This document shows, one piece after another, positions 6,125-32,236 of a stretch of 64,000 nt of DNA. Position numbers and translations under genes: made by a program. Under the pieces are notes generated by a model. That model saw only the letters and a list, made by a program, of their open reading frames with translations, ran no database searches and was not told the DNA's origin. The first letter of the stretch is position 1. The number at the start of each line of letters is the position of its first letter. Source of the DNA: Escherichia coli (GTDB lineage Bacteria > Pseudomonadota > Gammaproteobacteria > Enterobacterales > Enterobacteriaceae); the NCBI RefSeq assembly GCF_017348835.2, contig NZ_CP071375.1; one strand, given 5' to 3'.

Positions 6125-6400
6125 TCATGCCGGATGCGGCGTGAACGCCTTATCCGGCCTTCGAATGGAACGAGAATCTGTAGGCCTGATAAGCGTAGCG
6201 CATCAGGCATTTGTCACCATTGCCGGATGCGGCGTGAACGCCTTATCCGGCCTACAAGTGGCGCAAGAATTTGTAGGCCTGATAAGCGTAGCGCATCAGG
6301 CATTTGTCACCATTGCCGGATGCGGCGTGAACGCCTTATCCGGCCTACGAGTGGCACGAGAATTTGTAGGCCTGATAAGCGTAGCGCATCAGGCAGTCTG
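6125..6400. repeat. BIME/REP array, about three units of GCCGGATGCGGCGTGAACGCCTTATCCGGCCTAC alternating with GTAGGCCTGATAAGCGTAGCGCATCAGGC
   Basis: Directly visible near-identical tandem palindromic units; produces spurious ORFs with repeated MRRERLIRP peptides. Confidence 0.9.
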
Positions 6401-9085: not shown

Positions 9086-9496
9086 ATGACCATAAAAGAA
9101 AAATTCTCACAAAAATATCCCCATGCTTCCTTTTGTACTTTTGGCGATTCAGCCGCGTTGGCCGATCACCTCGCAACGTTGATTGCGACTGGTGTTAAAA
9201 CAGCTTCCTGTGGTTCGCTGGCGGGATGTATTGAAGACAACGCATTTCCGATGATTGGTGAGTATAAGATTGTAGAAAATAGCCGTGGTGAGCCTGTATG
9301 TGTTATCAGAGTGATTGGCCTGCATTTACTGCGCTTTTCTGATGTCACCGCAGAGCTTGCCCGTAAGGAAGGTGAAGGTGACCTCAGTCTTGAATATTGG
9401 CGTAATGAACACCGTCGTTTTTTCCAGGCAGAAGGAAGCTATTCACCAGAAATGGACGTTATCTTTGAAGAATATGCCCTTATTGACGTTGTATAG
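9086..9496 (+). CDS. ASCH-domain (PUA-like) protein, about 136 aa
   Basis: ORF 9056..9496; the MTIKEKF start at 9086 is more plausible; ATLIATGVKTASCG resembles the ASCH GxKT core. Confidence 0.55.
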   Translation: MTIKEKFSQKYPHASFCTFGDSAALADHLATLIATGVKTASCGSLAGCIEDNAFPMIGEYKIVENSRGEPVCVIRVIGLHLLRFSDVTAELARKEGEGDLSLEYWRNEHRRFFQAEGSYSPEMDVIFEEYALIDVV

Positions 9497-9569
9497 ATAA
9501 CTATTTATCTACACGAAATAAGCTCACAAACATAAAATATCGCTAATTTTGTTTATTTTGCTGTTTTTT

Positions 9570-9588
9570 ACGTGATGAATGTCACACT
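9570..9588. promoter_or_regulatory. CRP-like half-site pair GTGA-N6-TCACA upstream of the ABC transporter
   Basis: Sequence acGTGAtgaatgTCACAct read directly; about 160 bp upstream of the binding-protein start codon. Confidence 0.35.
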
Positions 9589-9746
9589 TATTATTGCTGC
9601 CCGTTTTGTCCATATTTATAACCATATTTTTAATAGCTGCCTGAAATAGAGCTGTTTATTCTGCATAAAAATATTCGAAAATTCTTATTCTCTCCAGCGC
9701 GCTAATTTGGGCGAACACTTCCTGACTACCCTGCAATGAGGCTGAA

Positions 9747-10733
9747 ATGATGAATAAACGTTTTGTTATCAATATGGTGTCTTCGCTGTTATTAGGCGCT
9801 GCGCTAATTTCTGCGCCGCTCCAGGCAGCGGAAAAAGTCGTGGTGAATATTTCTAAAGTCGATGGTATGCCGTGGTTTAATCGCATGGGCGAAGGTGTGG
9901 TTGAGGCGGGTAAAGCCTTTGGTGTTAATGCCTCACAGGTGGGGCCTTCAAGTACTGATGCTCCGCAACAGGTTAAAATTATTGAGGATTTAATCGCCCG
10001 TAAGGTTAATGCAATTACTATCGTGCCAAACGATGCCAACGTGCTGGAACCGGTATTCAAAAAAGCGCGAGATGCCGGAATTGTGGTTCTGACCAACGAA
10101 TCCCCCGGTCAGCCAAGTGCTAACTGGGATATCGAAATCATTGATAACGAAAAATTTGCCGCTGAATATGTTGAGCATATGGCGAAACGCATGGGTGGCA
10201 AGGGCGGCTATGTGATTTACGTGGGTAGTTTGACCGTGCCGCAGCATAACTTATGGGCTGACTTGCTGGTGAAATACCAGAAAGAGCATTACCCGGATAT
10301 GCATGAAGTTACCCGCCGCATGCCGGTTGCCGAGAGTGTGGATGACTCACGTCGTACCACACTGGACCTGATGAAAACCTATCCTGACTTGAAAGCGGTT
10401 GTCTCCTTTGGTTCAAACGGTCCGATTGGCGCGGGACGTGCGGTGAAAGAGAAACGGGCGAAAAATAAAGTCGCAGTCTATGGCATGATGATCCCTTCAC
10501 AGGCGGCATCACTGATTAAAAGTGGTGATATCACCGAAGGGATTACTTACGATCCGGCCTCTGCAGGTTACGCACTCGCAGCCGTCGCCAGCACATTGCT
10601 GAAGGGTGAAGAGATCAAGCCTGGATTAGAAATGCAGAATCTGGGTAAGGCCGACGTAGATATGGATAAGCGAATTATCCGTTTCCATAAGGTATTACTG
10701 GTCAACAAAGACAATATCGACTCACTTTATTAA
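9747..10733 (+). CDS. periplasmic sugar-binding protein, LsrB/RbsB family (328 aa) with signal peptide
   Basis: Signal peptide MMNKRFVINMVSSLLLGAALISAPLQAAEK; C-terminal NKDNID motif shared with LsrB-type binding proteins. Confidence 0.85.
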   Translation: MMNKRFVINMVSSLLLGAALISAPLQAAEKVVVNISKVDGMPWFNRMGEGVVEAGKAFGVNASQVGPSSTDAPQQVKIIEDLIARKVNAITIVPNDANVLEPVFKKARDAGIVVLTNESPGQPSANWDIEIIDNEKFAAEYVEHMAKRMGGKGGYVIYVGSLTVPQHNLWADLLVKYQKEHYPDMHEVTRRMPVAESVDDSRRTTLDLMKTYPDLKAVVSFGSNGPIGAGRAVKEKRAKNKVAVYGMMIPSQAASLIKSGDITEGITYDPASAGYALAAVASTLLKGEEIKPGLEMQNLGKADVDMDKRIIRFHKVLLVNKDNIDSLY

Positions 10734-10781
10734 TCCATTTCTTCGGGGCGAAAGCCCCGATTCTTATTGCCAGGGGATGTT

Positions 10782-12266
10782 ATGGAAACCTTCCTTTCCC
10801 TTCGTCATATCAACAAAACGTTTCATGCCACGCGAGCGCTGCGCGATGTTTCTCTCGACTTTATGTCGGGTGAAGTGCACTGCCTTGCCGGGCAAAACGG
10901 CTGTGGTAAATCGACGTTGATTAAAATTATGTCCGGTGTTTATCGCCCGGATGAGGGAGCGGAAATTACGCTTGGTGGGAAAAACTGGTCAAAGCTGACA
11001 CCCGCCGCTTCGGTGGCGCAGGGGATTCAGGTGATTTATCAGGACCTCTCTTTATTTCCTAACCTGAGTGTCTGGGAGAATATCGCCGTGAATCACTATC
11101 ACCACGGTCTGTTTGTTAACCGCCGTCGTCTGCGTGAGGTGGCGCAGGCGGCAATGACCAGTATTAACGTCACATTGCCACTGGATACACTCGTTTCTGA
11201 GCTTTCAATTGCCCGCTGTCAGCTGGTGGCTATTTGCCGTGCACTGGCGCAGGACGCACGGTTGATCGTGATGGATGAACCAACCGCTTCGCTGACCCAT
11301 CAGGAAGTGCAAGGGTTATTACAGGTGGTGCATCAATTGCGTGAACGCGGGATCTGCGTGGTCTTCGTCAGTCATCGTCTGGAAGAAGTGATGGAAGTTT
11401 CCGAGCGTATTTCAGTGCTGAAAGATGGTGAGCTGGTCGGGACTTTTCCGGCTGCAGAGATGACCACAAAACAACTCGGTTTCCTGATGACCGGCCAGGA
11501 GTTTGAATATCAGGTGCGAGAGTTGTGGCAGGGAAAATCCAGCACCCCGGTGCTGGAGGTGCGTAATTTAAGTCGTCATGGGGAATATCTAAATATTAAC
11601 TTGCGGGTGGAAGCGGGCGAAGTGGTATCGATTGTTGGCCTGCTTGGTGCGGGGCGCACGGAATTATGTCTGAGTCTGTTTGGTATGACCCGACCGGATG
11701 CTGGCGAGATCCTCATCAACGGCCAGCCGGTTACACTGCATAGTAACCAGGACGCCATCCGCCACGGTATTGGTTATGTTTCGGAAGATCGCATGTCGCG
11801 CGGTTTGGTGATGGCGCAATCTATTGAAGACAACATCATTAGCACTGTTTTTCACAAGGTAAAAGATCGCTTCGGCTTTCTGAGTGAAACTAAAGTGCGT
11901 GACCTGGTGGACAGGCTAATCAAGGCATTGACCATCAAAGTCTCTGATCCTCATCTCCCGGTGAATACGCTTTCTGGTGGTAACGCGCAGCGAGTATCGA
12001 TCGCCAAATGGCTGGCGATTGGGCCACGACTGTTGATTCTCGATAGCCCGACAGTCGGTGTTGATATCGCCAACAAAGCAGGAATATACGGCATTATCAG
12101 CGATCTGGCGGCTCATGGCATTGCGGTATTGATGATCTGCGATGAAATTGAAGAAGCGTGGTATCAAAGCCACCGGATTTTGGTAATGCAAAAAGGTCAG
12201 ATCACCCATAGCTTCCTGCCTGACAGCAGTTCTCAGGCCAGGATTGCGGAGGTGGTAAATGGCTGA
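10782..12266 (+). CDS. sugar ABC transporter ATP-binding protein, duplicated ABC domains (about 494 aa)
   Basis: Two Walker A motifs (GQNGCGKST and GLLGAGRTE) and an ABC signature (LSGGNAQR); RbsA/LsrA-like architecture. Confidence 0.85.
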   Translation: METFLSLRHINKTFHATRALRDVSLDFMSGEVHCLAGQNGCGKSTLIKIMSGVYRPDEGAEITLGGKNWSKLTPAASVAQGIQVIYQDLSLFPNLSVWENIAVNHYHHGLFVNRRRLREVAQAAMTSINVTLPLDTLVSELSIARCQLVAICRALAQDARLIVMDEPTASLTHQEVQGLLQVVHQLRERGICVVFVSHRLEEVMEVSERISVLKDGELVGTFPAAEMTTKQLGFLMTGQEFEYQVRELWQGKSSTPVLEVRNLSRHGEYLNINLRVEAGEVVSIVGLLGAGRTELCLSLFGMTRPDAGEILINGQPVTLHSNQDAIRHGIGYVSEDRMSRGLVMAQSIEDNIISTVFHKVKDRFGFLSETKVRDLVDRLIKALTIKVSDPHLPVNTLSGGNAQRVSIAKWLAIGPRLLILDSPTVGVDIANKAGIYGIISDLAAHGIAVLMICDEIEEAWYQSHRILVMQKGQITHSFLPDSSSQARIAEVVNG

Positions 12267-13230
12267 ACTGAAAAAACGCCATGAATTCTGGCTGGCATTA
12301 CTGATTGTGGTGCTGTTTGTTGGCCTTGCCTGGCGCAGCGACGAGTTTCTGACATTCGGTAATTTGTACGATCTCGCCAATAACTATGCCATGTTGACTA
12401 TTCTCGCCTGTGGTTTGTTTGTGGTGTTGATTTCCGGTGGAATTGATATTTCGTTTCCAGCTATGACCATCATTGCGCAATACGGCATGGTGCTGTTGCT
12501 GCAAAAAATTGGTGGCAACTTCGCTGTCGCGTTTGCACTGGCGGGCTGCATCGGCATTTTACTTGGCTTAATTAACGCCTTACTGGTTAATCGCCTACGG
12601 GTGCCTTCTATCATCATCACTATCTCGACGCTGAATATTTTCTATGGCCTGCTGTTATGGTTGAGTAAAGGTGTGTGGCTGTACGACTTTCCGCCGTGGT
12701 TTGAGCAGGGGGTTATGTTGTTCAAGTACACCGATGCTGATGGCTATGACTATGGCCTTGGTCTGCCGCTGATCGCCATGATTACGGTGGTGCTGCTAAC
12801 AGCGTTTATCATGAATTTCACCAGTGTAGGGCGCAAAATTTATGCCCTTGGCGGGAACCGCGAATCAGCCAGTCGCATCGGCTTTAGCGTGCTGAAACTG
12901 CAACTTTTCGTCTATGGCTATATGGGATTGATGTCTGGCGCTGCGGGTGTAGTGCAGTCGTGGACGGTGATGACTGTCGCCCCCGATTCTCTTCTGGGTT
13001 ATGAGCTGACAGTACTGGCTGCGGTGGTGCTTGGCGGCACTAGTTTGCTCGGCGGGCACGGCACGTTAACCGGTACTTTGCTCGGCGTGGTGTTGTTGGC
13101 AGTGATGCAAAACGGGCTAAATTTATTGGGAGTCTCGTCTTACTGGCAAACATTGATCACCGGCATCATCATCGTTGCCAGCATTAGTGCCACGGCGTGG
13201 AGTCAGCATCAGAACCGGAGTCTGCTATGA
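12259..13230 (+). CDS. ABC transporter permease, RbsC-like (323 aa)
   Basis: Multi-TM hydrophobic ORF overlapping the ATPase stop by 8 bp. Confidence 0.8.
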   Translation: MAELKKRHEFWLALLIVVLFVGLAWRSDEFLTFGNLYDLANNYAMLTILACGLFVVLISGGIDISFPAMTIIAQYGMVLLLQKIGGNFAVAFALAGCIGILLGLINALLVNRLRVPSIIITISTLNIFYGLLLWLSKGVWLYDFPPWFEQGVMLFKYTDADGYDYGLGLPLIAMITVVLLTAFIMNFTSVGRKIYALGGNRESASRIGFSVLKLQLFVYGYMGLMSGAAGVVQSWTVMTVAPDSLLGYELTVLAAVVLGGTSLLGGHGTLTGTLLGVVLLAVMQNGLNLLGVSSYWQTLITGIIIVASISATAWSQHQNRSLL

Positions 13231-14183
13231 AAAAATCGTGGTGTAATAACGTTGAGTTTTACTTGATCGGCCTGCTGGTGCTAACTGTTGCCGCGTTCAG
13301 CATTACTATGCCGGAGATTTTCTGGTCGATAAGTAATTTCCAGTCCGTCGCTTCGCAAATGCCCGTGCTGGGCATTCTGGCGTTGGCTATGGCGGTGACC
13401 ATGCTTTGCGGTGGCATTAACTTGTCAATTATAGCCACTGCTAACGCCTGTTCACTGGTGATGGCGTGGGTGGCGACTCAGTATCCACCGGGTATTGCTA
13501 CGGTTGTCGCTACGTTACTGGCGGGCGCTGGCGCGGCGGTGATAATCGGTTTATGTAACGGCGTATTGATTGCTGGTATTCGAGTGTCGCCAATTCTTGC
13601 AACGCTTGGGATGATGACGTTGCTCAAAGGGATAAATATTCTGGTGACAGGTGGTAGCGCCATTGCCAATTATCCCTCATGGGTGCTGTGGTTGAATCAT
13701 GCGCAATGGTTCGGTATTCCGCTACCGATGTGGTTGTTTGCCGCAGTGGCACTGGGGCTGTGGATATTGCTGGAAAAAACGCCGCTCGGTAAAGCCATTT
13801 ACCTGATTGGGTCTAACGAACGAGCAACACTTTACTCCGGCATTAACACTCGTCGGGTGCTGATTTGGGTTTATGTCATTTCCGCCTTGCTTTGTGCGGT
13901 AGCGGCATTTTTGATGATGTCGAAACTCAACTCGGCTAAGGCCTCTTATGGCGAATCGTACTTGCTGGTGTCAATCCTCGCGGCAGTACTCGGCGGGGTT
14001 AATCCGGACGGCGGCAGCGGGCGGATAATTGGTATGGTGCTGGCGCTGTTTCTTCTGCAAATTATTGAAAGCGGCTTCAATATTCTCGGTATAAGCCCCT
14101 ACCTGACGATGGCCTTATGGGGAACGTTGCTGCTCTGTTTCATTCAGGCTCGCGGCATGTTGGGGCTGGATCGGGTGGTTTAA
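13227..14183 (+). CDS. ABC transporter permease, second subunit (about 318 aa)
   Basis: Multi-TM ORF; the MKKSW start forms an ATGA overlap with the preceding permease stop. Confidence 0.8.
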   Translation: MKKSWCNNVEFYLIGLLVLTVAAFSITMPEIFWSISNFQSVASQMPVLGILALAMAVTMLCGGINLSIIATANACSLVMAWVATQYPPGIATVVATLLAGAGAAVIIGLCNGVLIAGIRVSPILATLGMMTLLKGINILVTGGSAIANYPSWVLWLNHAQWFGIPLPMWLFAAVALGLWILLEKTPLGKAIYLIGSNERATLYSGINTRRVLIWVYVISALLCAVAAFLMMSKLNSAKASYGESYLLVSILAAVLGGVNPDGGSGRIIGMVLALFLLQIIESGFNILGISPYLTMALWGTLLLCFIQARGMLGLDRVV

Positions 14184-17051: not shown

Positions 17052-17722
17052 TCACCGCTGCGTCACCCCTTCGTAAATCAGGCGTAGCGCGAATACACCA
17101 ATAATTGCACCAATAACCCGACTGGCAACGCGTTGCATACGCCCATAAGCACGACGCACAGCGGGCAAAGAAAACGCCTGACTAAGAAAGACTCGCCAGA
17201 TAACTGATGCGAGCACAATCCCCGCCCAGGCCATTAAACGTGCCCATGTTGGTGTTTCGGCATTTAATGTTACTGAGAAAATACTGATAAAAAATAAAAC
17301 GGTTTGCGGGTTAGAGAGATCGGTAATTAATCCGCGGCGAAAAAAGACATACCAGGGGCGCTAATCGGTTGTTGTAGTGTGCTCATTTGCGGTGTTGACT
17401 GGCGGCGCATGCTACACCACGCAAACCATAAGAGATAAGCGCCGCCGACGATTCTGATAAGCGAAAAAATCTCCTCACACTGCGTAATTAGCGTTGCAAG
17501 ACCAAACAAACCCAACCCGGAATAAAATGCATCGCCCAGCGCCACGCCCAGTCCGGTCAGCACTCCTGCGCGTCGACCGGAAGCCAGGCTGGTTTGTACT
17601 ACCACAAAAAGATTGGCTCCCGGATTAAAAAAAGTAATCACGAACAGTCCTACGGTCAGGTAAACGGCGTGCAAAGGATCCATAGTGATTTCATCCATAA
17701 ATAAGTGAAGTAACTTCATCAT
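17052..17722 (-). pseudogene. yahN: LysE/RhtB-family amino-acid exporter, apparently disrupted by a -1 frameshift in a poly-T tract
   Basis: Two minus-strand ORFs (17327..17722 and 17052..17234) in different frames; combined span 671 nt versus 672 nt expected for 223 aa plus stop; frame break at a T-homopolymer near 17339-17345. Confidence 0.55.
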
Positions 17723-25704: not shown

Positions 25705-26062
25705 GTCGGATGCGTCGCGTGGCGCATCCGACACCATGCGCCGATGCCTGATGCGACGCTGACGCGTCTTATCATGCCTACAGGTCTGAACCGTAGGTCG
25801 GATAAGGCGTTCGCGCCGCATCCGACACCGTGTGCAGATGCCTGATGCGACGCTGACGCGTCTTATCATGCCTACAGGCCTGAACCGTAGGTCGGATAAG
25901 GCGCTCGCGCCGCATCCGACACCGTGCGCAGATGCCTGATACGACGCAGGCGCGTCTTATCATGCCTACAGGCCTGAACCGCAGGTCGGATAAGGCGTTC
26001 GCGCCGCATCCGACACCATGCGCCGATGCCTGATGCGACGCTGGCGCGTCTTATCATGCCTG
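25705..26062. repeat. BIME/REP array (about four units) between prpE and codB
   Basis: Repeated CCGATGCCTGATGCGACGCTGACGCGTCTTATCATGCCTACAGG...GTAGGTCGGATAAGGCG units; generates nested spurious ORFs on the minus strand. Confidence 0.9.
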
Positions 26063-31081: not shown

Positions 31082-32236
31082 ATGCTGCTGGTTCTGGTGC
31101 TGATTGGTCTTAATATGCGACCACTGCTCACCTCCGTCGGGCCACTGCTACCGCAATTGCGCCAGGCAAGCGGAATGAGCTTTAGCGTGGCTGCCCTGTT
31201 GACCGCTCTTCCGGTGGTCACCATGGGCGGGCTGGCGCTGGCCGGAAGCTGGCTTCATCAGCATGTCAGCGAACGTCGCAGCGTCGCCATCAGTTTGTTG
31301 CTGATTGCCGTCGGTGCATTGATGCGTGAGCTTTACCCCCAAAGTGCGCTGCTGCTTAGCAGCGCACTGCTTGGTGGGGTGGGGATCGGCATCATTCAGG
31401 CGGTGATGCCTTCGGTGATTAAACGGCGGTTTCAGCAGCGCACGCCACTGGTGATGGGGCTGTGGTCCGCGGCTCTGATGGGCGGCGGTGGACTTGGCGC
31501 CGCCCTGACGCCCTGGTTAGTTCAACATAGCGAAACCTGGTATCAAACACTCGCCTGGTGGGCGCTGCCTGCCGTTGTTGCGCTCTTTGCCTGGTGGTGG
31601 CAAAGCGCCCGCGAGGTCGCCTCTTCCCACAAGACAACAACCACTCCGGTTCGCGTGGTATTTACTCCCCGCGCGTGGACGCTGGGTGTTTACTTCGGTC
31701 TGATTAACGGTGGTTACGCCAGCCTGATTGCCTGGTTACCCGCCTTCTATATTGAGATTGGTGCCAGCGCGCAGTACAGCGGTTCCTTGCTGGCATTGAT
31801 GACGCTTGGGCAAGCCGCAGGAGCTTTGCTGATGCCTGCTATGGCTCGCCATCAGGATCGGCGCAAACTGTTAATGCTGGCGCTGGTGTTACAACTGGTG
31901 AGGTTCTGCGGCTTTATCTGGCTGCCGCTGCAATTGCCGGTATTGTGGGCGATGGTGTGTGGGTTAGGTCTGGGTGGCGCGTTTCCGCTCTGTTTGCTGC
32001 TGGCGCTCGATCACTCTGCGCAACCAGCTATTGCTGGCAAGCTGGTGGCGTTTATGCAGGGGATCGGTTTTATCATCGCCGGGCTTGCCCCGTGGTTTTC
32101 TGGTGTGCTGCGTAGTATCAGCGGCAATTACCTGATGGACTGGGCATTTCATACGCTGTGCGTCGTTGGGCTGATGATCATAACCCTGCGCTTTGCACCA
32201 GCACGTTTTCCGCAGCTGTGGGTCAAAGAGGCATGA
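31082..32236 (+). CDS. cynX: MFS cyanate transporter (384 aa)
   Basis: ORF 31055..32236; start MLLVLVLIGLNMRPLL at 31082. Confidence 0.88.
   Translation: MLLVLVLIGLNMRPLLTSVGPLLPQLRQASGMSFSVAALLTALPVVTMGGLALAGSWLHQHVSERRSVAISLLLIAVGALMRELYPQSALLLSSALLGGVGIGIIQAVMPSVIKRRFQQRTPLVMGLWSAALMGGGGLGAALTPWLVQHSETWYQTLAWWALPAVVALFAWWWQSAREVASSHKTTTTPVRVVFTPRAWTLGVYFGLINGGYASLIAWLPAFYIEIGASAQYSGSLLALMTLGQAAGALLMPAMARHQDRRKLLMLALVLQLVRFCGFIWLPLQLPVLWAMVCGLGLGGAFPLCLLLALDHSAQPAIAGKLVAFMQGIGFIIAGLAPWFSGVLRSISGNYLMDWAFHTLCVVGLMIITLRFAPARFPQLWVKEA

Follow-up and report, generated by a model that had tools for sequence, protein, structure and literature searches.

A probable one-base deletion in a C-run of yahN, a LysE-family exporter gene of Escherichia coli

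The yahN locus and its split reading frame

The window, a 64,000-nt stretch of Escherichia coli DNA analysed here as a whole, carries on its minus strand (17052..17722) a copy of yahN, the gene for a LysE-family amino-acid exporter. This copy is 671 nt long and is identical to LZG51_RS18915 of strain PE164 (NZ_CP114128.1, assembly GCF_021390295; O108:H9; pig, Nanjing), which RefSeq/PGAP lists as yahN, 'LysE family transporter', a 'frameshifted' pseudogene of 671 nt. The pseudogene state is therefore already known, being recorded in the public RefSeq annotation. In the annotation tables of PE164, F2_81 and 120899 the gene lies between yahO and yahM, near prpR, in the order prpR-yahO-yahN-yahM-yahL; it is convergent with yahM and divergent from yahO. 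This conserved position and near-identity to annotated yahN identify it as the yahN orthologue.

An 801-nt query comprising yahN and its surroundings matched 5,188 of 5,426 complete E. coli genomes, 5,160 of which cover at least 80% of it at no less than 95% identity, and at 100% identity there was one match, PE164. The reverse complement of PE164 positions 3819494-3883493 reproduces the whole window apart from a single SNP at window position 31901, in cynX, where the window has T and both PE164 and F2_81 have C; the window may accordingly represent a sibling isolate or a different version of the assembly. The nearest relative with an intact yahN is F2_81, whose 672-nt gene is 99.9% identical to that of the window.

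Two minus-strand open reading frames (ORFs) take the place of the single frame. The N-terminal one (17327..17722; 131 aa, MMKLLHLF…SAPGMSFFAAD) consists of 123 native YahN residues and eight out-of-frame ones and ends, after residue 131, at a premature TAA stop in the shifted frame (17327..17329). The C-terminal one (17052..17234; 60 aa) starts at an internal Met in the original frame; it is a mechanical ORF with no sign of independent translation. Both pieces exceed the cutoff of 25.6 bits for the Pfam LysE profile (PF01810), as does the intact relative, which aligns as one chain to profile positions 2-193 of 193 (E = 1.1e-59). The N-terminal ORF matches positions 2-93 (E = 1.8e-29) and the C-terminal ORF positions 138-193 (E = 7.3e-12) of the same profile. 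Thus, no single polypeptide spans the LysE domain: the two matched parts do not share a frame, and the stretch between them (positions 94-137) is read out of frame. The original prediction, made from the sequence of the window, had described just such a split LysE-family exporter gene, with these two ORFs and a combined span one nucleotide below the 672 nt that intact yahN alleles indeed have, and in these respects it was correct. A 1-nt gap relative to intact alleles, a stop after 131 codons and the PGAP 'frameshifted' flag mark the gene as a frameshifted pseudogene.

Several other features were noted in the region and in related genomes. Tandem REP-like arrays lie in the codB-prpE spacer (window positions about 25730-26050) and in the yahI-yahG spacer (about 6160-6360), as revealed by secondary BLAST alignments that are shifted by about 94 nt and have roughly 94% identity; the latter array sits under the annotation of a 249-nt 'hypothetical protein'. 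Between yahK and yahJ (about 9086-14183) the window carries a cluster of genes for a sugar ABC transporter, an AI-2-type substrate-binding protein and an ASCH-domain protein, which is also found in F2_81, whereas K-12-like genomes have at this place only a 75-nt partial 'hypothetical protein' remnant (L012, 15209-15283). In each of the six K-12-like genomes compared, the yahG gene (about 18263-19682 in L012-L017) carries a pseudogene flag, 'internal stop'; in PE164 and F2_81 it is annotated as intact.

Position of the missing base

When the window gene was aligned with the intact yahN genes of F2_81 and 120899, a single gap column was found, and it falls in a run of cytosines. The intact F2_81 allele reads GCCCCCTGG, with five Cs (C5), and the window GCCCCTGG, with four (C4; 17355..17358, minus strand). 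In F2_81 the codons around this point are AGC GCC CCC TGG TAT GTC TTT TTT CGC, and the window has AGC GCC CC- TGG. The mutated run is fused to a Dcm motif, CCTGG (17352-17356, minus strand). Another common allele has TCC (Ser) instead of CCC (Pro) at the same codon, which interrupts the homopolymer.

The original prediction had attributed the split to a single-base deletion in a homopolymer, which holds as far as yahN is interrupted and one added base restores the LysE frame; the base, however, is C and not T. The break had been mapped to a T-run near 17339-17345, and this placement was not borne out. The run in question (17340..17345, minus strand) consists of six Ts (T6) in the window and equally in every intact allele aligned, including those of F2_81 and 120899, as well as inside the exact 71-nt intact allele present in 2,723 records, and the missing C sits 10-18 nt upstream of it. 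Alignment to yahN of other strains, proposed at the time as a check, thus returned the expected one-base gap but put it in the C-run. A synthetic allele with T5 had no full-length exact match in the collection of 5,426 genomes: its best rows, at 98.6%, were the intact allele with one gap, and the two records in the band at or above 99% are presumed to be partial alignments. With T6 in every intact allele aligned and the only gap in the C-run, a deletion in the T-run was ruled out.

The choice of base also decides the ancestral protein. Insertion of one C yields a product 100% identical to YahN of F2_81, WP_000976977.1 (…SAPWYVFFRRGL…). Insertion of one T, the repair suggested earlier, gives …SAPGMSFFRRGL…, in which the downstream frame is restored and three residues are wrong: positions 124-126 read G-M-S (…PGMSFFRRGL…) where the ancestral protein has W-Y-V (…PWYVFFRRGL…). 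The useful outcome is therefore a correction, to a C5-to-C4 deletion at 17355-17358 and an ancestral peptide with …PWYVFF….

Distribution of the deletion and the question of assembly error

Exact matches to a 70-nt C4 query were found in five complete genomes of the same collection of 5,426 E. coli genomes, and exact matches to a 71-nt C5 query in 2,723 records; a C6 allele was found in none. The four C4 genomes other than PE164 come from 19SZHZ886Rt (human, Shenzhen), S163-2 (pangolin, Guangzhou), TUM9754 (Japan) and DETEC-P61 (ICU patient, Guangzhou). In all five the gene is annotated as 'frameshifted', so that an intact yahN of split architecture, which the original prediction had named as a refuting case, did not turn up anywhere.

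The four additional genomes carry a K-12-like yahN allele, nine SNPs from that of the window. Over 24 kb they differ from one another by 0-1 SNP, and five derived SNPs common to all four set them apart from ET745 and CUPF06, the intact genomes nearest to them; they therefore form a clade that inherited the deletion. Their yahN resembles that of the window in the C5-to-C4 change itself, its 70-nt context, the length of 671 nt and the 'frameshifted' annotation, and differs from it in the allele background (the nine SNPs) and in the alleles of the flanking proteins. These differences indicate that the deletion in the K-12-like clade is independent of that in the window and not due to common descent, and we infer from the aligned sequences that the same change arose at least twice. 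As the four isolates were sequenced independently by different laboratories, the change in that clade is real, heritable and tolerated in nature. One of the two intact neighbours, CUPF06, has a frameshift of its own elsewhere, a 1-nt deletion in yahC (L017, 22985-23481; alignment column 23365) that is found in this single genome, is annotated as 'frameshifted' and lies outside any long homopolymer, an example of how common such isolated frameshift calls are among the genomes of the collection.

We consider it fairly likely, judging from these comparisons, that yahN of the window is a genuine and, in evolutionary terms, very recent loss-of-function pseudogene of the PE164 lineage, and that the base is probably missing from the DNA itself rather than from the assembly. 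The chief alternative, less likely though deserving serious weight, is that yahN of the strain is in fact C5 and intact, one C having been lost from the consensus during assembly or polishing, at a homopolymer overlapping a Dcm-methylated CCTGG. The lesion is indeed a 1-nt change in the length of a C-run fused to that motif, and the two classes that prevail among nanopore consensus errors are those at homopolymers and at Dcm motifs (Wick et al., PMC6591954). Moreover, within its own lineage the deletion is found only in PE164 and the window, the near-identical sister genome F2_81 being intact. The PE164 paper names Illumina NovaSeq data and Unicycler assembly (PMC12233904), which speaks against such an error, although a closed 5-Mb chromosome implies long reads, of which the same paper gives no description.

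The surrounding sequence offers a broader measure of assembly quality. Nine SNPs and one indel, the one in yahN, separate the window from F2_81 over 64,000 aligned nucleotides. The window contains 845 homopolymers of at least 4 bases (251 of at least 5) and 134 CCWGG sites, and 15 of its C or G runs that are at least 4 bases long are fused to a Dcm motif. Apart from the site in yahN, all homopolymers of this size (844) and all CCWGG sites (133) have the same length in F2_81, and a single indel among so many susceptible sites argues against an indel-prone assembly. With no other indel against F2_81 and yahN as the only annotated pseudogene or frameshifted gene in the 64 kb, generally error-prone assembly of this region was ruled out. 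The distribution of the C4 allele points the same way: a systematic error would be expected to scatter among the 2,723 C5 records, whereas the four other C4 genomes fall into one clade defined by five common SNPs, and C6 is absent. The caveat about sequencing or assembly error attached to the original prediction thus stands, weakened by the lack of any further indel in the region and by the inheritance of the deletion in the four-genome clade. An inherited deletion in a second, unrelated clade means that the change in the window is not to be dismissed on sight as an assembly error.

Consequences of the deletion and comparison with known systems

If the deletion is genuine, replication slippage is the likely mechanism, which would have removed one C from the C5 run at the codons for Ala122-Pro123 (GCC CCC to GCC CC-). 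The frame would then shift past residue 123, add eight foreign residues (GMSFFAAD) and reach the TAA at 17327-17329, and the 60-aa ORF downstream would simply be what is left of the original C-terminus, beginning at an internal Met codon. LysE-type proteins have six membrane helices, and the 131-aa product would hold about three of them; with no more than the first half of the LysE fold left, it should be incapable of export. In the hydropathy profile the peaks near residues 21-35, 67-70 and 94 remain and those near 170-180 and 207-212 are missing, as would fit a six-helix LysE-type protein that lacks its C-terminal half.

Two further readings would leave the gene partly or intermittently functional, and we regard both as very improbable. 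The first is that yahN is leaky or recoded, with some ribosomes slipping by -1 on the heptamer U_UUU_UUC (17339-17345, minus strand; the T6 run plus C) and producing a full-length YahN with the substitutions W124G, Y125M and V126S. This heptamer fits the canonical X_XXY_YYZ pattern, lies in the zero frame of the mutant past the deletion and ahead of the premature TAA, and slipping by -1 at that point would bring ribosomes back into the native frame and give the very peptide that had been reconstructed by adding a T. Of the three hallmarks of programmed -1 frameshifting considered here, however, namely a slippery heptamer, a stimulatory structure downstream and conservation of the split arrangement, only the heptamer is present. 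The downstream 79 nt lack a stimulatory structure (MFE -5.9 kcal/mol, z = 0.38, with 121 of 200 shuffles folding at least as well), and without stimulation U-rich heptamers give little slippage in E. coli. Nor is the arrangement conserved: it is a by-product of a rare deletion, the split being absent from the 2,723 records with the intact allele, and the three substituted residues would fall in a membrane-proximal segment.

The second, a phase-variable switch or adaptive hotspot in which the C-run toggles yahN or its loss is repeatedly selected, could appeal to the occurrence of the same C5-to-C4 change on two yahN backgrounds nine SNPs apart. Against this, exact C4 is seen in 5 records and exact C5 in 2,723, which amounts to about two events, C6 variants are absent from the collection, and the clade of four genomes has stayed C4 throughout, without reverting. 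High-rate phase variation relies on tracts far longer than five bases; a 5-nt tract with no C6 alleles and a stable C4 clade does not have the properties of a phase-variable locus. Equally doubtful is a combination of the two, in which C5 and its Dcm site would form a recurrent deletion hotspot (two events) and a low-level -1 slip on U_UUU_UUC would yield the W124G, Y125M, V126S form of YahN; were it true, yahN would be attenuated rather than dead.

For the preferred reading, a genuine loss of function, the expected consequences are slight. The literature that we found mentions yahN only in table entries as an amino-acid exporter (proline, lysine, glutamate, homoserine) and as the site of a Tn5 insertion (PMC11014345, PMC12263705), which is viable in MG1655 (PMC11014345). 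As a dispensable accessory exporter, yahN was probably lost at no cost or nearly so, and the orientation of the gene, convergent with yahM and divergent from yahO, gives no reason to expect a polar effect. The strain is thus probably without one of several redundant LysE/RhtB-type amino-acid exporters, which matters little. Beyond what the public annotation records, the present analysis adds the corrected position of the lesion with the ancestral sequence, the evidence for a clean local assembly and the recurrence of the change in another lineage.

Compared with intact E. coli yahN (b0328 in K-12; a LysE/RhtB-type exporter), the gene of the window has the same locus and synteny, and with one C restored it has the same length (672 nt) and encodes WP_000976977.1; lacking that C, it has a frame broken past residue 123 and is a pseudogene. 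It also closely resembles the ordinary homopolymer-slippage pseudogenes of enterobacteria, with which it shares a single-base change in a short run, restriction to one lineage, a dispensable accessory gene and a context free of polar effects. It differs from them only in the overlap with a Dcm site and in one recurrence of the same change.
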